From: an uncultured Desulfobacteraceae bacterium
Lineage (GTDB): Bacteria; Desulfobacterota; Desulfobacteria; Desulfobacterales; JALSRD01
Reading direction: 5' to 3'
Length of the DNA: 64,000 nt
Assembly: GCA_964442705.1 (NCBI GenBank)
Contig: CAYUAQ010000005.1
Span: forward strand, 1,102-65,101
Program-made: the position numbers and the translations under genes
Shown: positions 1-12,196 of the stretch, piece after piece
Layout of the letters: each line of letters begins with the position of its first letter
How positions within the stretch are numbered: the stretch's first letter is position 1
Notes under the pieces: model-generated
The model's database searches: none
What the model saw: the letters and a program-made list of their open reading frames with translations, nothing else
What the model was told of the DNA's origin: nothing

Positions 1-91
1 CGATTGTTCTGTGCCGGCCGGATTTGGTTTATAGCGGCCGAAAGTTTTTGATCCCCTGTTTCAACCCATTATCGGAAGGAGGAGGACATCA

Positions 92-2002
92 ATGACCAAC
101 CCTTATGACATTGCCTTTAAACGTTCCATCGAAGACCCGGACGGCTTCTGGGCGGAGGCGGCGCAGAACTGCCACTGGTACAAGAAGTGGGACAAGGTTC
201 TGGACGACAGCAACAAGCCTTTTTACCGCTGGTTCACCGGCGGTGAGATCAACACCTGTTACAATGCCCTGGACTACCACATCGAACAGGGGCGTGGCGA
301 TCAGGCCGCCCTGATCTATGACAGTCCGGTGACCGACACCATCAAAACATACACCTATACCGAACTGCGGGATGAAGTGGCCCGATTCGCCGGGGTACTC
401 AAGGGACTCGGGGTTGAAAAAGGCGACCGCGTCCTGATTTACATGCCCATGATCCCCCAGGCGGCCATGGCCATGCTGGCCTGCGCCCGCATCGGTGCCG
501 TACACTCGGTGGTTTTCGGCGGGTTTGCGGCCAACGAACTGGCCACGCGCGTCAACGACGCCAAACCCAAGGTGATCGTTTCGGCCTCCTGCGGCATAGA
601 AGTCAAAAAGGTCATTGCCTACAAGCCGCTTCTGGATGAAGCCATCCAGATGTCGGATACCGACGCACGCCCCCAAAAGTGCGTCATTTTTCAGCGGCCC
701 ATGATCGAGGCCTCTCTGATAGAGGGCCGCGACCTGGACTGGGAATCGGCCATGGCGGATGCGCAGCCGGCCGACTGCGTGCCGGTGAAGGCCACCGACC
801 CGTTGTACATCCTGTACACCTCGGGCACCACCGGACAGCCCAAGGGCGTGGTTCGGGACAACGGCGGCCACGTGGTGGCCCTGAAGTGGAGCATGAAAGC
901 CATCTACAACGTGGACCCCGGTGACGTCTACTGGGCGGCTTCGGATGTGGGCTGGGTGGTCGGCCATTCCTACATCGTATACGGACCGCTTTTTCAGGGC
1001 TGCACCACCATTCTTTTCGAGGGCAAGCCCGTGGGTACGCCCGATGCCGGGGTGTTCTGGCGCGTCATCTCCCAGCACAAGGTCAACTGCCTGTTCACCG
1101 CGCCCACCGCTTTTCGGGCCATTAAACGCGAAGACCCCAACGGCGATCTGATCAAGGACTACGATCTGTCCTGTTTCCAGGCGCTGTTTCTGGCCGGAGA
1201 ACGGCTGGATCCCGACACCCTGAAATGGGCCCAGAGCAAACTGGGGGTACCGGTCATCGACCACTGGTGGCAGACCGAAACCGGATGGGCCATCTGCGCC
1301 AATTGCCTGGGGCTGCATCAGTTCCCGGTCAAGGAGGGATCTCCCACCAAACCGGCGCCCGGCTGGAATCTGTTCGTGGTAGACCCAGACAACAATCCCG
1401 TAAAAGCCGGTGAGATCGGCGCGCTGGTTGTCAAACTGCCGCTGCCACCGGGATCGTTGCCCACCCTCTGGAACAATGACGAACGTTACGTCGAATCCTA
1501 CCTCAAGGAGTTCCCGGGCTATTACAAGACCGCTGACGCCGGATACATCGATGAAGACGGCTATGTCTTCGTCATGGCCCGCACCGATGACATCATCAAC
1601 GTGGCCGGCCACCGTCTGTCCACCGGAGCCATGGAGGAAGTGCTGGCCGATCATCCGGATGTGGCCGAATGCGCCGTGCTGGGCGTGGAAGACAAACTCA
1701 AGGGACAGGTACCGGTGGGATTTCTGGTGCTCAACGCCGGTGTGACCCGCAGTCATGACGAGATCATCACCGAAGTCATACAGATGGTGCGCACCCGCAT
1801 CGGGCCGGTGGCCTCCTTCAAAACGGCCACCGTGGTCAAGCGACTGCCCAAAACCCGCTCCGGCAAAATCCTGCGGGGTACCATCCAGAAGATCGCGGAC
1901 AACAGGGAATTTAAAGTTCCGGCCACCATTGACGACCCCGCCACCCTCAGTGAAATGGAAGAGGCGCTGGAAAAAATCGGCTATGCCAAAGCCCGAAAGT
2001 AA
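92..2002 (+). CDS. prpE: Propionate--CoA ligase / AMP-forming short-chain acyl-CoA synthetase
   Basis: 636-aa ORF with ANL-superfamily motifs YTSGTTGQPKG, WWQTETG, DEDGY..ARTDD and PKTRSGKI. N-terminal FKRSIEDPDGFW and C-terminal IDDPATL resemble PrpE more than Acs (from memory of the E. coli proteins). GGAGGAGG Shine-Dalgarno at 78-85, 6 nt before ATG92. Confidence 0.88.
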   Translation: MTNPYDIAFKRSIEDPDGFWAEAAQNCHWYKKWDKVLDDSNKPFYRWFTGGEINTCYNALDYHIEQGRGDQAALIYDSPVTDTIKTYTYTELRDEVARFAGVLKGLGVEKGDRVLIYMPMIPQAAMAMLACARIGAVHSVVFGGFAANELATRVNDAKPKVIVSASCGIEVKKVIAYKPLLDEAIQMSDTDARPQKCVIFQRPMIEASLIEGRDLDWESAMADAQPADCVPVKATDPLYILYTSGTTGQPKGVVRDNGGHVVALKWSMKAIYNVDPGDVYWAASDVGWVVGHSYIVYGPLFQGCTTILFEGKPVGTPDAGVFWRVISQHKVNCLFTAPTAFRAIKREDPNGDLIKDYDLSCFQALFLAGERLDPDTLKWAQSKLGVPVIDHWWQTETGWAICANCLGLHQFPVKEGSPTKPAPGWNLFVVDPDNNPVKAGEIGALVVKLPLPPGSLPTLWNNDERYVESYLKEFPGYYKTADAGYIDEDGYVFVMARTDDIINVAGHRLSTGAMEEVLADHPDVAECAVLGVEDKLKGQVPVGFLVLNAGVTRSHDEIITEVIQMVRTRIGPVASFKTATVVKRLPKTRSGKILRGTIQKIADNREFKVPATIDDPATLSEMEEALEKIGYAKARK

Positions 2003-2040
2003 ATAGCCGCCGCAGTTGATGATCTGCAGCAAGAAAAAGC

Positions 2041-2073
2041 CGGCCCTCTGATATAAAGTGGGCCGTCTTTTTT
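2041..2073 (+). terminator. Putative rho-independent terminator after prpE
   Basis: CGGCCC (2041-2046) pairs with GGGCCG (2060-2065) across a 13-nt loop, followed by TCTTTTTT. The stem is short and the loop long. Confidence 0.45.
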
Positions 2074-2166
2074 GAGTTATTAAAATTTGTTACGGATAAA
2101 AACCTAAGATAACACAACATACTTCTGGTGACTTTCTGGTTTCACGTCGGCAACAGGATCTGTACA

Positions 2167-2553
2167 ATGCCAAAGAAGATATTGATCGTTGATGACGAAC
2201 CCAGCATTGTGGCGCCGCTTCAGTTTCTGATGGAAAGGAGCGGCTACGAGGTCATGGTGGCTACCAGTGGCGAAAAAGCGCTCGAGATGATCAACGAAAA
2301 TCGGCCGGATCTGGTATTGCTGGATGTCATGCTGCCCGGCCTCAGCGGATTCGATGTCTGTCGCATGATACGCGAAGACAGTGAACTTGCCGGCACTCGT
2401 ATCATTCTGGTCACGGCTCTGGGACGAAGGGTCAACGTCGCCAAGGGTATGGCGCTGGGGGCCGACGATTACATTGTCAAACCCTTTGCCAATCAGGAAC
2501 TGGTCGCCAAGGTGAAACAGCTGCTGGATCCCCTTCATGAGACTGAAAAATAA
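2167..2553 (+). CDS. Single-domain response regulator (CheY-like receiver, no output domain)
   Basis: Start taken at MPKKILIVDDEPS (ATG2167) inside track ORF 2128-2553. Receiver signature present: acidic DDE, phospho-acceptor D in LVLLDVMLPG, T in ILVTA, K in IVKPF. About 128 aa. Confidence 0.85.
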   Translation: MPKKILIVDDEPSIVAPLQFLMERSGYEVMVATSGEKALEMINENRPDLVLLDVMLPGLSGFDVCRMIREDSELAGTRIILVTALGRRVNVAKGMALGADDYIVKPFANQELVAKVKQLLDPLHETEK

Positions 2554-4696
2554 ATTCTGGCTGCTGCTGGTCATACCGACGCTTTTCATGATCGCCATCA
2601 TTGTGATCATGGCGGTATTGTTCTGGCAGCAGATGACACCGCAACAGCGGGTTCTCTTTCTGGGCATCACTAAAGAATATTTCATTTATTTTTTCGGCGG
2701 CGCCATCTTTCTGGTGGCTGGTATCGGACTGCTGATCGACGGCATCATCAACACCTATGTCATTCCGGTGGCCAAGGTGGCTGAAGAAACGTCGGTGATC
2801 TTTTCGGTTAACCCTGGCCATCGCATCGCCCCCATCGGGGGCAGGGATATCCACAAACTGATCCACGCCATCAACGAGGGGGCCCAGCGTTACGAGGACT
2901 TGAAAAGCTCCGTGGACGAGGCCATCCGGCAGGCCAAAAGGGAGGTGGAAGAGGAAAAAAATCTGTTGGCCGGGCTCATGGCCGAACTTCCCGAGGGCGT
3001 TATCGTCTGCAACCGGGAAGGAAATATTCTGCTTTACAACCGACGGGTGATCCGCCTGCTGGTGGAAGGGTGCACACATGCCGCCGAAGCCGATGTAGAG
3101 CCCTTCATCGGGCTGGGGCGTTCGATTTCCGATATTATCGATGAGCACCTCATCTCCCATGCCATCGATGAGATCCTTTACAAATTGAAGCAGAAAGTGT
3201 CTCCCGTGGTTTCTCATTTCGTAATCACCAGTTGTGAAGATGCCCTGCTGGATGTCGAGGCCGCCCCTATTGTCGATCGGCAGAGACGTTTTAACGGCTT
3301 CATCCTGCTGATCCGGGATATCACCGAGCAGCTGAAAACCGACAGTCAGGTGGCCGCGCTGCTGCAGTCGCTCATTCGATCCATGCGGGCTTCGCTGGCC
3401 AGTATTCGATCGGCCATCGAAGCCATCGTCGAATTTCCGGACATGAATGAACGGCAGCTGGAAAACTTCAAGCGCATTATCCATGAAGAAGCCGTATCGT
3501 TGAGTGCCATACTGGAGGAAAATGCCAACGAGTATGCCGAACATATCCGCTCCCGCTGGCCGCTGATTTCCATCCGGGCCACCGAACTGGCCGACGCATT
3601 GATCAGCAGGGCATACCAGAAGCTGGGGCTGAAGGTCGACGGCGACTTGGTCGAAGCCGAGTGCTGGATTAAGGTCGACAGCTACGCTTTCATCCTCAGC
3701 CTTCTCTATCTGCTGGACCGGCTGCAGGAGACCGTCAAGGCGAAAAAATACAGCCTCAGCATCCAGGTTGAGGATTGCCTGGCAGCCATCGATATCGCCT
3801 GGCAGGGCAAGACCATTGCCCAGCAGGAGCTAAAAAAGTGGTGCCGGAAGACCATTTGCGTCGGCAGGGAGGCCCTGGCCCTGACCATGGAGGAGCTGTT
3901 GTCCCATCACGAAGCCGAGATATGGAGCTGCCCACCGGAAAACGGAAGCCCGGGGGCGCACATCCGCATCGCCCTTCCGGCGGCCGACACCTGCCGACCG
4001 GATCAGATCGGCGGATTGACCATTTTGCCGGACAGCCGACCGGAGTTCTTCGACTTCGACCTGTTCCATCAGCCGGGCCAAACGCCGGACGTTGACAGTC
4101 AGCCGCTGGATCAGCTGTCCTATACGGTTTTCGACACAGAGACCACGGGTCTGGACCCCCGGGGAGGCGACGAGATCATCTCCATCGGTGCGGTGCGTAT
4201 TATCAATGGGCGCATATTGCGAAACGAACGTTTCGACCAGCTCATCGACCCGCGGCGGGCGCTGCCGCCGGAGTCCACCCGTATCCACGGCATCCGCCCC
4301 GACATGCTGGCGGGGCAGCCCCCTATTGAAGAGGTGCTGCCCCGGTTTCATCAATTCGCCCGGGACACGGTCCTGGTGGCCCACAATGCCGCTTTCGACA
4401 TGCAGATGCTCAAGATGAAGGAGGAATTGACGGGGGTCAAATTCATCAATCCGGTGCTGGACACCCTGCTGTTGTCCGCCGTGGTTCATCCCGCCCAGGA
4501 GGATCACAGTATGGAGGCCATGGCACAGCGCCTGGGGGTAAATATCGTCGGGCGGCACACCGCCATCGGGGATGCGCTTTCCACGGCGGAGCTTTTTCTG
4601 AAACTCATCCCCCTGCTTTTTCAGCAGGGCATTCGAACGCTGAAAGAAGCCCGTCTGGCCTCCCGAAAAACCTACTATGCGCGATTGAAATATTAG
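2537..4696 (+). CDS. Membrane-anchored sensor-like protein: 2 TM + HAMP/PAS-like region + degenerate HisKA/HATPase core + DEDDh (DnaQ/epsilon-like) 3'-5' exonuclease
   Basis: 719-aa ORF with N-terminal hydrophobic helices. DHp-like SLIRSMRASLASIRSAIE lacks the His. The ATPase boxes are degenerate. The C-terminal exonuclease motifs are intact: FDTETTGL, VAHNAAFD, HTAIGDA. The ATG overlaps the receiver gene by 17 nt. Confidence 0.85.
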   Translation: MRLKNKFWLLLVIPTLFMIAIIVIMAVLFWQQMTPQQRVLFLGITKEYFIYFFGGAIFLVAGIGLLIDGIINTYVIPVAKVAEETSVIFSVNPGHRIAPIGGRDIHKLIHAINEGAQRYEDLKSSVDEAIRQAKREVEEEKNLLAGLMAELPEGVIVCNREGNILLYNRRVIRLLVEGCTHAAEADVEPFIGLGRSISDIIDEHLISHAIDEILYKLKQKVSPVVSHFVITSCEDALLDVEAAPIVDRQRRFNGFILLIRDITEQLKTDSQVAALLQSLIRSMRASLASIRSAIEAIVEFPDMNERQLENFKRIIHEEAVSLSAILEENANEYAEHIRSRWPLISIRATELADALISRAYQKLGLKVDGDLVEAECWIKVDSYAFILSLLYLLDRLQETVKAKKYSLSIQVEDCLAAIDIAWQGKTIAQQELKKWCRKTICVGREALALTMEELLSHHEAEIWSCPPENGSPGAHIRIALPAADTCRPDQIGGLTILPDSRPEFFDFDLFHQPGQTPDVDSQPLDQLSYTVFDTETTGLDPRGGDEIISIGAVRIINGRILRNERFDQLIDPRRALPPESTRIHGIRPDMLAGQPPIEEVLPRFHQFARDTVLVAHNAAFDMQMLKMKEELTGVKFINPVLDTLLLSAVVHPAQEDHSMEAMAQRLGVNIVGRHTAIGDALSTAELFLKLIPLLFQQGIRTLKEARLASRKTYYARLKY

Positions 4697-4799
4697 CGAT
4701 GCAGTTATCGGCTACCGCTAAACGGCTGCCAATAAAAATAGGCTGAAAAGGCCGTCCCATTTTTTTGTTTCTTGGCGACCGCAATTCAAACGCGGTGCA

Positions 4800-7520
4800 C
4801 TAGGGTAGGGGAAGCGTAAAAGAGAAGGTGGCGCCCTGGCCGGGTCGGCTCTGCACCCAGATGCGTCCGCCGTGGTGCTCGATGATGCTTTTCACGATGG
4901 CCAGGCCCAGGCCCGACCCGGGAGGACGTCCCAGGCCGGAATGGCGGATCTGGCGGAACTTTTCAAAGATGATCTGCTGGTTTTCAGGCTGGATGCCGAT
5001 GCCGTTGTCCTGAACATCGATCCGCACCTCCCGTTCGGCTGCCGCCATGCGGATGCTAATCTGCCCCCCTGACTCGGGACAGAATTTCACGGCGTTTGAA
5101 ATCAGATTGACCATGACCTGGATCAAACGGTCACGATCACCTCTGACGGCCGGGGGCTTCGGTTTGATAGCGGTTTCCAGATGGATATTCTTCTCGCGGA
5201 TGAGCTGCCGGGTGGCATTGAGCGCATCGTTGATGACGTCACGCAGATCGACGTCGGTGGTCTGCCACTCCATCATCCCCGAATCCATTTTCTGAAAATC
5301 GAGCACCTGGGCAATCAATCGGGACAGGCGCTCGCTTTCCTTGAGTATGATGCCGGAAAAAGCGTTTTGTTTTTCGGGGGTCAGGTCCTCATTTTCATTG
5401 AGAATCTCTGCAATGGAACGAATCGAGGTGAGGGGAGTGCGCAGTTCATGGGTGACGGTGGAGATGAATTCGTCTTTGAGCCGATCGAGTTCCTGGAGCC
5501 GTTCATTGGCGGCGCGCAGCTCTATGGTCAGCTTCTCCAGCCGATGGCTGTAAGCAATCGCCTGGCGGGTTTCGTCCAGAATGTCCATCACTTCGTCTAT
5601 GCTGATGGGTTCCTCCTTGGCCACAGAGGACACCAGCACCCGGGCGGATGCCGACCCCACCGTGCCGGCCAGGAGCTGCTCCGAATAAGTGACAAAACCT
5701 GCGTCCGCGGGGATTTTATCGATGGTTCTGAACTGATGCTGGGCAGCATACTCGCGGAGCACTTCACGGGTACGTTTTTCACCCAGGAAGCGTGTGAGCA
5801 GTGCCCGCAGTTCACGGATGGAGGTTTCACCGCGCCACAGGGAGGTGCGGTCAACCGCCGGCGCTTCCCGGAAAATATCCACGAACAGGGCCGCCTGGGC
5901 ATGCTCCAAGGCCGAGGGACGGCTGAAGAGCGACCCCCCTACATACCCGGCCAGGTTGATCAGCAGGCTCCAGCAAATGGCATTGGCGATATGGTCCGTG
6001 GGCGTGATACCGATATCCAGGCCAAACAGTTGATGCGGCTTCAGCAGAGAAATCCCCCAAGGGCCTTCCAGCACGAACTGGCGTGACAAAAGACCGGCCT
6101 CGGCCAGAGACGGCAGGAAGAGGGTGTAAGCCCAGACGCCGAAACCGGCCAGCAGCCCCCACAGGGCTCCCGTACGTGTGCCCCGTTTCCAGAAGATGCC
6201 GCCGATGATGGCCGGTGCAAACTGGGCCACGGCCGTAAAAGACACCATGCCGATGGACACCAGGGTCAGAAACCTGGCGATGAAATGAAAGTACGCGTAC
6301 CCCATCAGCAGGATCAGCACGATACTGCCGCGACGGATGCTCAGCAGAAGACCGCTGAGTTCTTTCTGGCGCGAAAAAAAGGGATGCGGAATCCGCAGCA
6401 GTATGGGCATCACCAGGTCGTTGCAGATCATGGTGGACAGGGCCATGGTTTCAACGATGACCATGCCGGTGGCCGCCGACAGGCCGCCGATGAAAACGAA
6501 CAGCGCCAACCCTTCCTGCTGTGCCGACATGGGCAGCGTCAGCACAAACGTATCAGCGTCCACCGACCCGGGGGCAAAACGAAGCAGTCCGCCGAAGGTC
6601 ACCGGCAGAACGAAAATATTGATGGCCAGCAGGTAGAGCGGAAACAGCCAGATGGCCTTACCAAGGTGTTTTTCGTCGACGTTTTCCACCACCGTGACCT
6701 GGAACTGCCTGGGAAGCAGCACCACCGCCATCATGGAGACGAAGATATACATGTACCAACCGGAGTAGGCGGCGGCACTGGTATCCATGGACCACAGGCT
6801 GCGAAAGGCGGCCACCTCTCCTGCCCGGGCAAAGATATCATCGACCCCGTTGAATAATCCGAATGTCACAAAAACACCCACTGCCAGGAAGGCCAGCAGC
6901 TTGACGATGGACTCAAAGGCAATGGCGGCGACGATCCCCTCGTGCCGCTCGGTGGCCTCCAGGTTCCGGGTTCCGAAAAGAATGGCGAAAACGGCCAGCA
7001 GCATGGCCACGTAGAAAGCGGTGTCATGAAAAACCGGAATATCACTGAAGAGGTGGGCCGACCCGAAATGGGGATAATGCTTGATGAGCAGATAACTGGC
7101 CGATATGGCTTTTAGCTGCAGCGCGATGTAGGGGACTACACCGACGACCGCCATTATCGTGGCAATACCCCCCAGCACGGAACTCTTGCCGTAACGTGAG
7201 GCGATAAAATCGGCGATGGAGGTGATGCTGTGAGTTTTGCTGATGCGGATGATTTTGCGCAACACCATCCACCCCAGCGTCATCATGAGGGTAGGACCAA
7301 TATAGATGGGCAGAAAACCGACGCCGGTTTTAGCCGCACGCCCGACGCTGCCGTAGAAAGTCCAGGCGGTACAGTACACGGCCAGGGAGAGGGCATAGAT
7401 GTAAGGATTGCTGATGATACTGCGGCCGGATTCGGCAGCCTTGTCACCGTAAAAAGCGATGGCGAAAAGGATGCCGATATAACCGAACGAACACAGGAGG
7501 ATGGTTCCTGTCTGCAGCAT
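4800..7520 (-). CDS. Sensor histidine kinase with N-terminal Na+/solute symporter (SSS/SLC5)-like domain (CbrA/CrbS-type architecture, no receiver domain)
   Basis: 906-aa ORF. About 500 aa of polytopic SSS-like membrane domain, a linker, then a canonical HisKA (FISTVTHELRTPLTSIRS) and HATPase_c (NLISNAVKF, DNGIGI, GSGLGLAI). Confidence 0.9.
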   Translation of the reverse strand: MLQTGTILLCSFGYIGILFAIAFYGDKAAESGRSIISNPYIYALSLAVYCTAWTFYGSVGRAAKTGVGFLPIYIGPTLMMTLGWMVLRKIIRISKTHSITSIADFIASRYGKSSVLGGIATIMAVVGVVPYIALQLKAISASYLLIKHYPHFGSAHLFSDIPVFHDTAFYVAMLLAVFAILFGTRNLEATERHEGIVAAIAFESIVKLLAFLAVGVFVTFGLFNGVDDIFARAGEVAAFRSLWSMDTSAAAYSGWYMYIFVSMMAVVLLPRQFQVTVVENVDEKHLGKAIWLFPLYLLAINIFVLPVTFGGLLRFAPGSVDADTFVLTLPMSAQQEGLALFVFIGGLSAATGMVIVETMALSTMICNDLVMPILLRIPHPFFSRQKELSGLLLSIRRGSIVLILLMGYAYFHFIARFLTLVSIGMVSFTAVAQFAPAIIGGIFWKRGTRTGALWGLLAGFGVWAYTLFLPSLAEAGLLSRQFVLEGPWGISLLKPHQLFGLDIGITPTDHIANAICWSLLINLAGYVGGSLFSRPSALEHAQAALFVDIFREAPAVDRTSLWRGETSIRELRALLTRFLGEKRTREVLREYAAQHQFRTIDKIPADAGFVTYSEQLLAGTVGSASARVLVSSVAKEEPISIDEVMDILDETRQAIAYSHRLEKLTIELRAANERLQELDRLKDEFISTVTHELRTPLTSIRSIAEILNENEDLTPEKQNAFSGIILKESERLSRLIAQVLDFQKMDSGMMEWQTTDVDLRDVINDALNATRQLIREKNIHLETAIKPKPPAVRGDRDRLIQVMVNLISNAVKFCPESGGQISIRMAAAEREVRIDVQDNGIGIQPENQQIIFEKFRQIRHSGLGRPPGSGLGLAIVKSIIEHHGGRIWVQSRPGQGATFSFTLPLP

Positions 7521-7555
7521 GGAATTTCCCGTTAACTTTGTGCCTTATCCGGACT

Positions 7556-7753
7556 TCATGGACGTTCCTTGGTGATCCACGACGTCAGGAGAATGATAGA
7601 CAGCCAGGCGGCAAACAGGTAAACGTAAAAAAGGGGAATACCCATGAAGAGGGTATCCATATTGAACAGGGAAAGCAGTGGATAGTTGAACAGCACCAGC
7701 CCGATCAGAAATACGGCCACCAGGCGGCCATTTTTCAGCTTGTCTCTGGTCAT
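7556..7753 (-). CDS. Small two-TM membrane protein immediately upstream of the transporter-kinase (DUF3311/CbrX-like position)
   Basis: 65-aa ORF with two hydrophobic helices (VAVFLIGLVLFNYPLLSLF; LFYVYLFAAWLSIILL). It ends 35 nt before the kinase start on the same strand. Confidence 0.5.
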   Translation of the reverse strand: MTRDKLKNGRLVAVFLIGLVLFNYPLLSLFNMDTLFMGIPLFYVYLFAAWLSIILLTSWITKERP

Positions 7754-7981
7754 GATGAAGCCCCCCTTTCGTCTTTCGGCAGTCGCATGGTGCAGGTTGC
7801 CATCAGGCCGGATACCCGCTATTGTTTATATGGAAAATCAGGTGCCCTGTCAACGAGCGCCGGGGAACATCGCCAAACTACAGCGGCCGGGGGCGCTGTT
7901 TTTCCTTGGAAAGCACCGGAAACCGTGCTAACCAGATTCAATTCGGCATCACCAATGTAACCAGGGGCTCAGGAGGAGCGT

Positions 7982-10324
7982 GTGATGAGTACCCAAGCAT
8001 TTCAGTTTTTAAAGACCATCCCTATTTTCGCTTCGTTGCCGAAGCATGAACTGGACAACATTGCCAAGCATGTTTACGTCAAGAAATCCCCCCGGGGGAC
8101 AATTCTGGCCCACCAGGGAAAGACTCCCATCGAGGATATTTTTATCCTGAAGAGCGGCATGCTGGAGCTGTTCTATACCAACGTCAAGGGGGAAAAAATA
8201 CTGAGCGGCAACCTGCAGTCGGGCGATATTTTCGGTGGTATTTCGCTGCTCATGAACGCCGGCTTGGCGGTGAGGACGGTTACTGTGGAAAGGGACGCGT
8301 CCTTTTACCTGCTTCCCAAAGACCTGTTTCTTGAACTGTGTGGACGTTACAAAACTTTTTATCAGTATTTCGTTGATGCGTTCAGTCAGCGCATGCTGGA
8401 CGAATCATACGCCAGTATCATCGGAGCCACCCAGGCGTTAAACTTCCTGTCCCAGACGGTGCCCTTCTCTTTTCTGCCCGATAACTTGCGCAAGCAGGCC
8501 GCTGACCAGGTATCCCTGATTCACTATGCCCAGGACACCGTACTGTGCATCCAGGGCAAAACCGAACTGGAACATCTGTACATCATCCAGAAGGGGGCGG
8601 CCGAACGGTACTACGAGAAGGACGGCAAGAAAACGCTCAAGGGCCTCATGGGTGAGGGCGACATCTTCGGCGGCATCTCTATCCTGCTCAACCGCGGGAT
8701 TGCCGTCAGATCGTTGCGCACCATAGAGGATGCGTACATCTACCTGCTTCCCAGAAACGTTTTTCTGGAGATTTGTGAGTCTCACGAACCTTTCAGCGAA
8801 TATTTTACCGATACTTTTGGCAAGCGCATGCTGGACAAATCCTACCGGTCCATCATCGCCCAGAGCCTGCGGCCGCGAGAAGACGAACTGCCTTTTCTGA
8901 ACCAGGCCGTGTCCACCATCGTACAGACCGATATCGTGCACTGCCCCCCGGATACCAGCATTCAGGAAGCTGCTTCGGTGATGAAACGCCACGGGTGCAG
9001 CTCGATATTTGTCAGAGAGGACGATGGCCGCTATACGGGCGTCATCACGGACAACGACATGCGCAACAGAGTGATTGCCGATGGTTACGATATTCATCGG
9101 CCGGTTTCCGACATCATGTCATCGCCGCTCATAACGGTGCCTTCGGATGCGCTCATATTCGAGGCGCTGATGACCATGATGCAGCACAACATCAAGCATC
9201 TGGCGGTGACTGACGCCGATGCCCATGTGGTGGGAATCCTCAGCAACCAGGACCTCATCAATGCGCAGGGAAACTCACCGCTTTTCCTCATCCGCAGTAT
9301 TAATACGGCAACATCGATGGAAGACCTCACGGATGTACAGGCCAGACTGCCTCATCTCGCCAAGGGATTGATCAGCAGCGGGGCCAAAGCACGCAACGTG
9401 ACACGGCTTATCACCACCGTTGCGGATGCGGTGCTGAAAAAAATCGTTGGGTTTGCCCTCGACGAACTGGGGGCGCCGCCGGCCCGGTTCGCCTTCATGA
9501 TCATGGGCAGCGAAGGTCGCCGAGAGCAGACCTTTAAAACTGATCAGGACAATGCCATCGTTTTCGAAGATGTTGCACCGGAAAAGGCAGAGGAAGTGAA
9601 AGCCTATTTCCTGCGTTTCGGCGAACTGGTGTGCGGCTGGCTGGATCAGGCCGGATACGCCTTCTGTCAGGGAGGGGTAATGGCCAAAAACCCCCGATGG
9701 TGCCAGTCCCTGACATCCTGGAAAAAGGATTTTTCCAACTGGATTCACGCGGCCGAACCGGAAGACCTGCTGCAGTCCAGCATTTTTTTTGATTTCCGGG
9801 GGGGATACGGTGATATGTCGCTGATCGATGAACTGCGCGGCTACCTCTTCGACTCGCTGAAAGGCTGGGCCGGGTTCTTTCGGCATCTCACCGAAAACGC
9901 CCTCCATTTCAGGCCGCCCATTGGATTCTTCCGAAACTTCGTGGTGGAATCCAAGGGTAAACACCGCAATGCGTTCGACATCAAAGGCGCGTTAATGCCC
10001 ATCGTGGACTTCGCCCGTATCTATGCGTTGAAGCATGGCATCGATGAAACCAACACCCTGGACCGCCTGCAGCAGCTATCCGTAATGGGAGCGCTTTCCT
10101 GGGAGGAGTACAACGAACTCGAGCAGTCTTACTGTTTCATGATGCAGTTGCGCTTCGTACGGCAGATTACGGCGGTTCTGGACGAAAATCAAAAGCCGGA
10201 CAACTATATCAACCCCAAGAAACTGTCACGTATTGAACAGACCATGCTGCGGGAAATCTTCAAGCGCATCGAAAAGTACCAGTCCAAGTTGGAGATCGAT
10301 TTCACAGGAGTTGCGTGGGCTTGA
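7982..10324 (+). CDS. Signal-transduction nucleotidyltransferase: 2x cNMP-binding-like + CBS pair + DUF294 NTase + DUF294_C
   Basis: 780-aa ORF. Two beta-barrel cNMP-like domains (GDIFGGISLL..AVRTV and GDIFGGISILL..AVRSL) and a CBS pair. Pol-beta-type NTase motif GSEGRREQTFKTDQDNAI. AGGAGG lies upstream; the true start may be ATG7985. Confidence 0.9.
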   Translation: MMSTQAFQFLKTIPIFASLPKHELDNIAKHVYVKKSPRGTILAHQGKTPIEDIFILKSGMLELFYTNVKGEKILSGNLQSGDIFGGISLLMNAGLAVRTVTVERDASFYLLPKDLFLELCGRYKTFYQYFVDAFSQRMLDESYASIIGATQALNFLSQTVPFSFLPDNLRKQAADQVSLIHYAQDTVLCIQGKTELEHLYIIQKGAAERYYEKDGKKTLKGLMGEGDIFGGISILLNRGIAVRSLRTIEDAYIYLLPRNVFLEICESHEPFSEYFTDTFGKRMLDKSYRSIIAQSLRPREDELPFLNQAVSTIVQTDIVHCPPDTSIQEAASVMKRHGCSSIFVREDDGRYTGVITDNDMRNRVIADGYDIHRPVSDIMSSPLITVPSDALIFEALMTMMQHNIKHLAVTDADAHVVGILSNQDLINAQGNSPLFLIRSINTATSMEDLTDVQARLPHLAKGLISSGAKARNVTRLITTVADAVLKKIVGFALDELGAPPARFAFMIMGSEGRREQTFKTDQDNAIVFEDVAPEKAEEVKAYFLRFGELVCGWLDQAGYAFCQGGVMAKNPRWCQSLTSWKKDFSNWIHAAEPEDLLQSSIFFDFRGGYGDMSLIDELRGYLFDSLKGWAGFFRHLTENALHFRPPIGFFRNFVVESKGKHRNAFDIKGALMPIVDFARIYALKHGIDETNTLDRLQQLSVMGALSWEEYNELEQSYCFMMQLRFVRQITAVLDENQKPDNYINPKKLSRIEQTMLREIFKRIEKYQSKLEIDFTGVAWA

Positions 10325-10385
10325 TGCGCCTTGTAACAGGGGCCTTTCCACAGGGAAATCTTCGGCCGGATTCTCCTGACTCTTC

Positions 10386-11507
10386 ATGAAATCATCCGAT
10401 TTGGTCGCCATGAAAATTTCCAAATTCTACGTCCATCAGGAAGTCAGTGAACATGAACAGGTGCGGCGGTTCCAGAAACGGCTGAAACTCTCTGCGGCCA
10501 TCGTCAGGGATGTCACTGAGGTTTATCGACACGTGATGGCATCCGACGATCCCATAGGCGCCGGAAAGCAGACCCTTTTTCTGACCAGAAACAGGGGGCC
10601 GTTCGTACGCCAATGCCCGGGTACACGCCACTACCTGTGCTGTGGTTACCGGATTCTGCATATCGGCACCTACTGCACCATGGATTGTGCCTACTGTATT
10701 CTGCAGTCTTACTTCCATCCACCGCTGCTGCAGTTCTTTGTCAACCAGGAGGATCTCCACCGGGAACTCGATGATTTTTTCCGGCAACCCGGCGTCAAAC
10801 GGATCGGCACCGGGGAATTTACAGACAGCCTCATATGGCAGATGTGGACGGATATCGGTGGCCGGCTGGTAGAGCGTTTCGCCCGCCAGGAAAATGCCGT
10901 GCTGGAACTCAAAACCAAAACCACCGCCGTGGAGGCCTTCAAGGGGCGCCGGCACAACCGTAAGACCATCATGGCCTGGTCGCTGAATACCCCCCGCGTG
11001 ATAGCGTCTGAAGAGCGGGGGACCGCCAGCTTGGCGGCCCGTCTCGATAGTGCGCGCAGGTGCGAGCAGTGGGGCTATCCCCTGGCGTTTCATTTTGACC
11101 CCATGGTGATCTACGACGGATGCCGTGAAGAGTACCTGCAGGTTGTCGATCAACTGTTCCGTAACATTTCTGCCGGAAATGTGGTATGGATCAGCCTGGG
11201 CAGTTTGCGTTTCATGCCGTCCCTGAAGGTCATCATCGAAAATCGTTTTCCCCGGTCTAAAATTGCATATGGTGAATTCGTAGGCGGTTTGGACGGAAAG
11301 ATGCGCTATTTCAAACGTCTCAGGATTGGTTTGTACCGCAGCATGGTAGCACATATTCGGACCCTGGCACCCGACGTGAACGTGTATTTCTGCATGGAAG
11401 ATGAAGAGGTCTGGCAGCAGGCTTTTGGTTTCGCCCCTAAAGATCCGCATGGCATCGCGGAGATGCTGGACCGCAGTGCGGTTCGGCATTGCGGGTTGAA
11501 GTTATGA
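10386..11507 (+). CDS. Radical SAM protein, spore-photoproduct-lyase-like (SplB/COG1533 family)
   Basis: 373-aa ORF with a CX3CX2C cluster in GTYCTMDCAYCILQSYF. Size and layout are typical of SPL-family DNA repair lyases. An alternative start is ATG10410. Confidence 0.72.
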   Translation: MKSSDLVAMKISKFYVHQEVSEHEQVRRFQKRLKLSAAIVRDVTEVYRHVMASDDPIGAGKQTLFLTRNRGPFVRQCPGTRHYLCCGYRILHIGTYCTMDCAYCILQSYFHPPLLQFFVNQEDLHRELDDFFRQPGVKRIGTGEFTDSLIWQMWTDIGGRLVERFARQENAVLELKTKTTAVEAFKGRRHNRKTIMAWSLNTPRVIASEERGTASLAARLDSARRCEQWGYPLAFHFDPMVIYDGCREEYLQVVDQLFRNISAGNVVWISLGSLRFMPSLKVIIENRFPRSKIAYGEFVGGLDGKMRYFKRLRIGLYRSMVAHIRTLAPDVNVYFCMEDEEVWQQAFGFAPKDPHGIAEMLDRSAVRHCGLKL

Positions 11508-11536
11508 TAGCAAACTACCGATATGACTATCAGAGA

Positions 11537-12196
11537 ATGAATTACAAGACACTGCTGACGTGTCTGGTCCTGGTGGTGACAGGCATCAGCTTGCAAAGCG
11601 GGTACGCCGCGGAGACGGTGGTGCACGTCAAACGGGTCAATGATGGTGATACCATCACGTTGACGGATGGACGTCTGGTTCGGTATATAGGCGTGGATAC
11701 ACCCGAGATCGATTACGAGAGACGCAGGGCTGAACCGCTGGCTTATGAGGCCAGGGATTTCAACCGGATCATGCTGAAGGCGGGAGGGGTTCGACTGGAA
11801 TTCGACAGGCAGACAAAAGACGGTTACGGCCGGACACTGGCCTATGTCTTTTTACGTGACGGTACTTTTGTAAATGCTGAAATACTGAGACAGGGATATG
11901 GATTTTTTCTGCCGACGGGTAAGAACAACCGTTACGGGAGGAAGCTGCTGGAAGCTCAGCGTGAGGCCATGTCGGCTGGGCGGGGGATCTGGAGAAACTG
12001 GCGGGAAACGGGGAAAAGGGGCTATATCGGAAATCGACGCTCTATGCGGCTGCATCTGAGAACATGCCCTTCGGCAGCCGGCATATCGAGATCCAACCGG
12101 GTGTATTTCAAGACCAGCTGGGATGCGTTCTGGAAAGGGTATGCACCGGCCAGGGGATGTATGAAACCGAAAAGATCAAAATGGACAAGAAAATAG
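11537..12196 (+). CDS. Secreted thermonuclease (staphylococcal-nuclease fold) with C-terminal Cys/His-rich tail
   Basis: Start taken at MNYKTLLTCLVLVVTGISLQSGYA|AE, a signal peptide. SNase catalytic pattern present: VNDGDTITL, YIGVDTPE, GRTLAYVF, NAEILRQGYG. The tail is HLRTCPSA...ARGC. Confidence 0.85.
   Translation: MNYKTLLTCLVLVVTGISLQSGYAAETVVHVKRVNDGDTITLTDGRLVRYIGVDTPEIDYERRRAEPLAYEARDFNRIMLKAGGVRLEFDRQTKDGYGRTLAYVFLRDGTFVNAEILRQGYGFFLPTGKNNRYGRKLLEAQREAMSAGRGIWRNWRETGKRGYIGNRRSMRLHLRTCPSAAGISRSNRVYFKTSWDAFWKGYAPARGCMKPKRSKWTRK

Follow-up and report, generated by a model that had tools for sequence, protein, structure and literature searches.

The stretch of DNA analysed here, referred to as the window, comprises 64,000 nucleotides (nt) of contig CAYUAQ010000005.1 from an uncultured Desulfobacteraceae bacterium (assembly GCA_964442705.1). 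It carries an open reading frame (ORF) of 719 amino acids (aa) in which a membrane-anchored module with the fold of a sensor histidine kinase is joined to a predicted DEDDh-type exonuclease. The ORF stands next to a gene for a stand-alone receiver (REC), and an acyl/acetyl-CoA synthetase (Acs), an SLC5/STAC transporter-like sensor histidine kinase and a cNMP-binding/CBS/DUF294 nucleotidyltransferase are encoded close by (Table 1). A first-pass annotation, made from the sequence alone, had read the protein as a kinase-dead sensor scaffold fused to an intact DnaQ-type nuclease and had named no characterised member with this architecture; searches of the literature on DUF294 with exonucleases, on pseudokinases with exonucleases and on SLC5/STAC kinases likewise turned up no account of the fusion. 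The architecture recurs in at least 120 full-length homologues and at least 375 genomic relatives and is therefore more than a chance combination.

Table 1. Genes and protein features at the locus (positions in the window; TM, transmembrane; DHp, dimerization and histidine phosphotransfer; CA, catalytic and ATP-binding; AF2, AlphaFold 2).
Feature	Position (nt)	Strand	Residues (aa)	Basis
Acyl/acetyl-CoA synthetase gene, directly upstream of the receiver gene	92–2002	+		ACAS_N, AMP-binding, AMP-binding_C
Stand-alone receiver (REC) gene	2167–2553	+	128, from ATG 2167	Pfam Response_reg, E 3.6e-31
ORF: TM / helical linker / PAS / pseudo-histidine-kinase / DEDDh exonuclease	2537–4696	+	719	ORF list, Pfam, profile, AF2, Foldseek, hhalign
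Two TM helices, ∼ 17-aa loop	2558–2752	+	∼ 8–30 and 50–72	Kyte–Doolittle, 19-residue window, ≥ 1.6; AF2 helices 5–32, 49–90
Helix-loop-helix linker, continuing as a long helix into the PAS domain	2753–2983	+		AF2: helix to aa 90, loop 91–102, helix 103–149
Cytoplasmic PAS domain	2984–3331	+	150–265	PAS_4, E 8.5e-6
DHp-like helical hairpin	3323–3544	+	263–336	HMM and hhalign register; AF2 helices 263–299, 305–336
CA-like (Bergerat-fold) domain without ATP-binding residues	3545–3985	+	337–483	Fold matches kinase CA domains
Linker motif SRPEFFDFDLF, between CA-like and exonuclease domains	4034–4066	+	500–510	Family conservation
DEDDh (DnaQ/PolC-type) 3′–5′ exonuclease domain	4115–4696	+	527–719	RNase_T, aa 531–687
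SLC5/STAC transporter-like sensor histidine kinase, intact H-box THELRTPL	4800–7520	-	906	HisKA, E 8.6e-18; HATPase_c, E 5.8e-32
Small ORF with two TM (hydrophobic) helices, directly upstream of the SLC5 kinase gene	7556–7753	-	65	ORF/hydrophobicity
2x cNMP-binding / 2x CBS / DUF294 nucleotidyltransferase	7982–10324	+	780	DUF294, E 9.4e-49; DUF294_C, E 1.1e-45
Spore-photoproduct-lyase-like radical-SAM gene, 3′ of DUF294	10386–11507	+		Pfam/ORF list
SNase-type nuclease gene	11489–12196	+		Pfam/ORF list

The central part of the protein is a homologue of the HisKA/HATPase_c kinase core, as the first-pass annotation had proposed. In Pfam the window protein alone matches neither HisKA nor HATPase_c at E ≤ 1; relatives give weak HisKA matches (4/37 to 6/21) and none to HATPase_c. 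A profile of aa 262–500 built from 21 sequences matches WalK/YycG (5c93 and 4u7n, E ∼ 3e-5) and VicK (4i5s, E 1.6e-3), in each case over DHp and CA. In the profile search the family consensus sltrsiraslAsiRsAiEa is aligned below the kinase sequence nvsHELRTPLTSLRSYIEA. When a profile of the region from 81 sequences is compared by hhalign with the cores of the neighbouring SLC5 kinases, the match has a probability of 99.4% (E 5.9e-22, 208 columns). AF2 models aa 262–500 with a pLDDT of 82.6 as two long helices followed by an α/β domain, and the top 50 matches of this model in a Foldseek search of the PDB are all histidine kinases (E 2e-11 to 2e-8), among them WalK, HK853, CpxA, an EnvZ chimera, KinB and the DivL pseudokinase (4q20). 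The full-length model aligns with WalK (9a5d) and VicK (4i5s) over 416–495 columns. WalK and VicK (9a5d, 4i5s, 5c93, 4u7n) are the best profile and fold matches and show the same domain order (TM, helical linker, PAS, DHp, CA); being genuine kinases, however, they possess the His, N, G1 and G2 boxes, and they lack a C-terminal nuclease. The N-terminal 500 residues of the window protein are descended from a sensor histidine kinase of this WalK/VicK-like kind.

The residues on which a histidine kinase depends have been replaced. Both the profile search and hhalign place R281 (nt 3377–3379) in the register of the phospho-acceptor His, R395 in that of the N-box Asn and W422 in that of the G1 Asp. 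Residue counts were taken over 86 relatives from several phyla. The His-to-Arg exchange in the window protein, claimed earlier, is borne out by both alignments, yet Arg is a trait of the Desulfobacterales: position 281 is Glu in 55/86, Arg and Asp in nine each and His in only two. Position 282 (His+1, the acid–base residue of kinases) is Gly in 59/86 and Asp in 2/86; position 285 (His+4, the phosphatase Thr/Asn of kinases) is Ala, Gly or Ser in 79/86. The degeneration of the ATP-binding boxes that the annotation had noted extends to the whole family, with Arg (65/86) or Lys (10/86) at position 395, the Mg-binding N-box Asn, and Trp (81/86) at position 422, the adenine-binding G1 Asp. H458 of the HGG motif is retained in the CA-like domain. 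With His, N-box Asn, G1 Asp and the phosphatase residues all lost, the pseudokinase is predicted to be capable of neither phosphorylation nor dephosphorylation. The DHp and CA domains have a mean pairwise identity of 35%, and the best-conserved DHp residue is R284 (His+3, 79/86); A293 and E318 are also kept. Two Desulfobacteraceae loci (L021, 5645–7804, and L022, 10001–12160) have a His in the phospho-acceptor register (LWQHQLTQS), their N-box Asn and G1 Asp still being gone, and no same-strand receiver upstream; they may form a separate sub-clade with different wiring.

The C-terminal domain presents the opposite picture. It matches RNase_T with E 1.4e-39 (136.7 bits against a Pfam cut-off of 24), and the DEDDh residues D533, E535 (ExoI, D-x-E), D621 (ExoII) and H674, D679 (ExoIII, H-x4-D) are each present in all 86 relatives; the earlier claim that every catalytic motif is kept thus holds across the family, with no substitution. 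It is also the most constrained part of the protein, with a mean pairwise identity of 65% versus the 35% of DHp and CA. The nearest solved relative is the Thermotoga maritima PolC exonuclease (2p1j, E 6.5e-31), with ε and the N-terminal exonuclease of DinG also among the nearest; Foldseek superposes the domain on PolC 9qpc with a root mean square deviation of 1.6 Å over 187 columns and on ε (2ido) with a TM-score of 0.84. It shares fold and DEDDh residues with PolC, DnaQ (ε) and DinG-N (2p1j, 9qpc, 1j53, 8zef), but these occur within replicases or helicases or as soluble subunits, and none of them is attached to a membrane sensor or to a module resembling a kinase. By these motifs and matches the C-terminus is an intact predicted DEDDh 3′–5′ exonuclease.

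Between the CA-like domain and the exonuclease lies a motif (Table 1) whose conservation equals that of the catalytic residues: F507, L509 and F510 are found in 86/86 relatives, R501 in 84, P502 in 83 and D506 in 83. In the AF2 monomer the linker is disordered, with pLDDT < 50 for aa 486–509. The motif has the look of a short docking motif, and its DFDLF core loosely resembles the β-clamp-binding pentapeptide QL[SD]LF.

At the N-terminus, hydropathy and AF2 agree with the annotation on two TM helices. Because only ∼ 17 residues separate them, we read the pair as a membrane anchor and not as a periplasmic sensor domain. The following segment had been called HAMP/PAS-like. Its PAS part is upheld by the PAS_4 match and by PAS_9 or PAS_4 matches in 34–35 of 37 family members; its HAMP part is not, since none of the 37 members, nor the window protein, matches Pfam HAMP at E ≤ 0.1, and the linker after the second TM helix is HAMP-like in its helix-loop-helix topology only (AF2). 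The PAS domain is the second-best conserved domain of the family (48% mean pairwise identity) and contains near-invariant residues, namely C158, N159, G162, N168, the loop G192-L-G-R-S196 and F228, which hint at a specific ligand or cofactor.

The full-length homologues found in the first protein search have 715–741 aa and are 44–77% identical to the window protein; those with a named source come from Desulfobacterales and related metagenome-assembled genomes. The genomic relatives were found in a scan of one genome per GTDB species, and the best 80 of the at least 375 belong to Desulfobacterota, Beta-, Gamma- and Alphaproteobacteria, Chloroflexota and Actinomycetota. Cultured carriers include Xanthobacter, Tepidicella, Ramlibacter, Piscinibacter, Aquabacterium, Noviherbaspirillum and a Pseudomonas. 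A search with the sensor/pseudokinase part alone (aa 73–500) brings up 268 clusters (50% identity, E ≤ 1e-30), nearly all of them ∼ 700–730 aa long with the module at residues ∼ 74–490; among full-length representatives it is essentially always joined to a C-terminal (exonuclease) domain of ∼ 220 aa. Many apparently short stand-alone relatives also turn up in a search with the exonuclease domain. The two that were looked up on long contigs, both from long-read metagenome assemblies, proved to be frameshift-split long forms (L087, 6505–8681, split as 483 + 226 aa; L088, 8001–8855, likewise split) and were rejected as short forms; such split genes inflate the counts of ‘short’ homologues in protein databases. 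One locus, L033, has two long-form copies.

The gene neighbourhood is conserved as well. ORFs were called in all fetched loci and searched with the window proteins; 78 loci have enough upstream sequence for the receiver to be scored and 54 have full flanks for DUF294. The receiver ORF ends within a few nt of the start of the exonuclease gene in 67/78 loci, most often with a 4-nt overlap; in most loci the overlap is 1–17 nt, and mostly 1–4 nt. In the window the receiver stop codon lies 17 nt inside the 719-aa ORF (overlap sequence ATGAGACTGAAAAATAA), as had been noted at the outset. A mechanical ORF list puts the receiver start at GTG 2128; ATG 2167 is the most plausible start, because the resulting protein has the size of its homologues (mostly 121–130 aa). 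In 50/72 loci the gene immediately before the receiver gene, on the same strand, encodes a transporter-like kinase of > 800 aa; the kinase gene is inverted in the window and in some other Desulfobacterales. DUF294 genes occur ≤ 10 kb away in 43/54 loci and Acs genes ≤ 10 kb away in 25/54, upstream in L002–L010 and elsewhere. The conserved unit therefore reads SLC5/STAC kinase, receiver, pseudokinase–exonuclease, usually with DUF294 and often beside acs and actP-like genes, and the pairing of receiver and exonuclease noted in the annotation is kept in most related loci.

The receivers form one orthologous family: 69 upstream homologues are 47–64% identical to the window receiver, and the phospho-acceptor pocket (the acidic pair DD, the phospho-acceptor D, T and K) is present in the window receiver and conserved among them. 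The kinase, called genuine from the start, matches the SLC5-STAC part of CbrA (PDB 10ED) over aa 7–474 with E 2e-69 and on this basis is assigned to the CbrA/CrbS ‘transceptor’ type. Since an SLC5 kinase gene adjoins and is collinear with the receiver gene in most loci, the receiver is not the orphan for which it had first been taken, and the SLC5 kinase is its probable cognate kinase.

A link between the same three kinds of protein is already established in Pseudomonas. The SLC5-kinase system for acetate of P. putida, MxtR/ErdR (= CrbS/CrbR), directly controls the operon PP_0354 (cNMP/CBS/DUF294)–PP_0353 (RNase_T exonuclease), which is among the targets that depend on it most strongly; deletion of the operon causes moderate growth defects on propionate and pyruvate, and its function is stated as unknown (PMC9927547; bioRxiv 10.64898/2026.09.07.749794). 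The PAO1 homologues of both genes adjoin actP and yjcH (PMC9927547; bioRxiv 10.64898/2026.09.07.749794; PMC5715377). Like CrbS/CrbR (MxtR/ErdR) and CbrA/CbrB, the window locus thus links an SLC5 kinase, a cNMP/CBS/DUF294 nucleotidyltransferase and a DEDDh exonuclease beside acs/actP-type genes (PMC5715377, PMC9927547), and it has the layout of the DUF294–exonuclease pair, with acs, REC, exonuclease, SLC5 kinase and DUF294 together. The wiring differs. In Pseudomonas and Vibrio the link is transcriptional, through the DNA-binding CrbR/ErdR, and the exonuclease is short and soluble, whereas the window receiver has no DNA-binding domain and the exonuclease carries its own sensor/pseudokinase module; these two features imply control at the protein level. 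Both forms coexist in one betaproteobacterial locus (L080), where a short exonuclease of 230 aa lies between DUF294 ORFs (85–3980) and an SLC5 kinase, a receiver and a long exonuclease follow at 6523–11899. The short protein matches the window domain only distantly (E 1.5e-18), and the coexistence of the two marks the long form as a paralogue that has a control module to itself. The linker motif is absent from the short exonuclease in this locus.

The closest precedent for the dead core is DivL of Caulobacter crescentus, a protein inactive both as a kinase and as a phosphatase. It binds DivK~P on the response-regulator-docking face of its DHp domain, for which R553 (His+3) is needed (PMC4211667). 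DivL is likewise a PAS-containing kinase chassis in which the phospho-acceptor His has been replaced and catalysis lost; the Arg at His+3 is common to both (R284 here), and the DHp–CA structure of DivL is one of the Foldseek matches of the window core given above. In DivL, however, the N, G1, F and G2 boxes are retained and Tyr takes the place of the His, whereas the window family lacks the ATP-binding residues and has Glu, Arg or Asp at that site. DivL also lacks an enzymatic output and relays its signal ‘backwards’, by way of its PAS domains, to CckA, in contrast to a family with a C-terminal nuclease, and receiver binding has been demonstrated for DivL but is inferred for the window family.

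We suggest that the 719-aa protein is a membrane-anchored signalling nuclease, presumably dimeric, and that the phosphorylated receiver docks on its dead DHp domain and gates the exonuclease, a model to which we give about an even chance of being right. The SLC5 kinase would sense a short-chain carboxylate such as acetate and phosphorylate the receiver. The phosphorylated receiver would then bind the retained response-regulator face of the dead DHp domain, as DivK~P does on DivL, and the ensuing rearrangement of DHp and CA would be relayed through the invariant linker (SRPEFYDFDLF) to switch the exonuclease. The PAS domain would provide a second, intracellular input. By similarity, the nuclease would act on a 3′-OH nucleic-acid end, probably together with the DUF294 nucleotidyltransferase. 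Indirect evidence for docking on DHp comes from the receiver gene that is conserved in overlap with the exonuclease gene (67/78 loci) and from R284, kept in 79/86 relatives, whose equivalent R553 is needed in DivL.

Several observations weigh against this model. Mutual information with average product correction (APC), calculated over 67 non-redundant pairs of receiver and exonuclease protein, shows no enrichment of DHp among the top 300 position pairs (30 versus 32.9 expected); the top pairs are spread over all domains, and with 67 pairs the signal is dominated by phylogeny. The genuine kinase and the pseudokinase carry different residues at classical specificity positions (for example, His+12 is Phe, Leu or Ile in the former and Ala in the latter), and a shared docking code is therefore not evident. 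The upstream receiver is absent in 11/78 loci, and the module of L001 has no receiver at all. The analogy with DivL is partial, since the N, G1 and G2 boxes that DivL retains are lost in the exonuclease family. Disorder of the linker in the AF2 monomer leaves the coupling route to the nuclease unseen. Lastly, mutation of the short, DUF294-linked exonuclease in Pseudomonas leads to no more than mild phenotypes (PMC9927547; bioRxiv 10.64898/2026.09.07.749794).

The same observations lend themselves in part to a different arrangement, in which the dead core is a scaffold for dimerization and transmission, sensing of an intracellular ligand by PAS and linker drives the exonuclease by way of the DHp coiled coil, and the receiver serves elsewhere, for example as a phosphate sink for the SLC5 kinase, on DUF294 or on a distant target. 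The strong conservation of the PAS domain, with its invariant C158, N159 and GLGRS, would fit such a role, as would the loci without an upstream receiver, the missing covariation signal in DHp and specificity positions unlike those of the genuine kinase. On the other hand, the overlap of receiver and exonuclease genes and the maintenance of their pairing across phyla tie the two proteins together, the operons usually encode no other output protein for kinase and receiver, and it is the Arg at His+3, which contacts the response regulator and is required for its binding in DivL, that is the most conserved residue of DHp. We regard this arrangement as the most serious competitor, although an improbable one.

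That the pseudokinase acts on the SLC5 kinase, in mixed membrane complexes or heterodimers formed through DHp, and modulates its kinase/phosphatase output, with the nuclease separately regulated or moonlighting, appears unlikely. The two membrane proteins are encoded side by side and their DHp sequences are related, with the shared motifs IRA..E and RFLGII..E in addition to the hhalign match. Yet the exonuclease, with its invariant catalytic residues, is the most constrained domain, which points to the nuclease as the output; the module is essentially always found with this domain, and DHp heterodimers between paralogous kinases are rare.

We think it very unlikely that the DHp/CA-like region is a histidine phosphotransferase of the Spo0B/ChpT type or a dedicated receiver phosphatase. 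Spo0B and ChpT are kinase-like folds, kinase-derived DHp domains with a degenerate CA-like domain, that do not bind ATP and do bind receiver domains, and in a few family members a His stands in register (L021, L022) or, at position 277, one turn before it. Spo0B and ChpT keep, however, a phosphorylatable His on DHp helix 1, where the window family has none that is conserved: besides the two at position 281, a His is found at position 277 in 23/86 and at position 316 in 12/86. With the residues at His+1 and His+4 missing as well, this role was rejected.

An ordinary proofreading ε subunit of DNA polymerase III, or a generic housekeeping exonuclease without a role in signalling, is hardly credible: sources do label relatives ‘DNA polymerase III subunit epsilon’ and the domain resembles ε and PolC exonucleases, but it scores far under the NCBIfam equivalog cut-offs (dnaQ_proteo, 111.6 versus 222.7 bits; PRK05711, 104 versus 196 bits) and passes only TIGR00573, a domain-level model, and it comes with a 500-aa membrane sensor/pseudokinase extension and a constant neighbourhood made up of a two-component pair, DUF294 and genes for acetate utilisation.

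In L002, L004, L005, L007 and L010 two Acs paralogues (∼ 677 aa and ∼ 636 aa) with an SSF transporter between them lie upstream of the receiver. The window Acs (636 aa) is the counterpart of the second copy; the window begins too near the gene to show whether it is preceded by the first. The position of the small ORF beside the SLC5 kinase gene is held by unannotated genes of 74–89 aa in L001, L004, L005 and L006. Downstream of DUF294, the radical-SAM and SNase genes also occur as a pair in Desulfobacterales-type loci (L005, L006, L007, L011 and L016) and were not seen in the proteobacterial loci; the SNase-type protein has a hydrophobic stretch, a possible signal peptide, in its predicted N-terminus. 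If the exonuclease and the nucleotidyltransferase are counted in, the acetate-linked cluster encodes four nucleic-acid enzymes. A promoter and terminator scan of 1950–8050 gave four promoter-like sites versus 3.6 expected by chance and offered no guide to operon structure.

The window protein belongs to a widespread, undescribed family in which a DivL-like dead kinase core is joined to an enzyme within an SLC5-kinase module. The current label, DNA polymerase III ε, is misleading for its genes and is not justified by the NCBIfam scores. The SLC5 kinase, DUF294 and DEDDh exonuclease were already linked in Pseudomonas through a DNA-binding regulator and a short, soluble exonuclease; here the arrangement suggests that what a two-component signal switches is a nuclease and not a gene. 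More tentatively, and on balance we doubt it, the status of the carbon source may directly switch 3′-end processing of a nucleic acid at the membrane without a transcription factor, passing from SLC5 kinase to receiver to dead kinase–exonuclease, with trimming and tailing shared with DUF294 and the linker serving as a latch or as a docking motif for a partner; this would be a hitherto unrecognised kind of output for two-component signalling. The family offers a testable handle on the role of the DUF294–exonuclease pair in the CrbS/MxtR regulon for acetate, propionate and pyruvate. Response-regulator outputs are normally domains fused to the receiver. In this family the enzyme appears instead to be attached to a dead kinase core, on which the receiver would dock. 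To our knowledge, among studied proteins only DivL has a kinase core that has been turned to sensing a phosphorylated receiver. If docking and gating by the receiver is correct, a family this widespread (268 clusters, several phyla) would make such ‘reverse’ use of a kinase core a general design.

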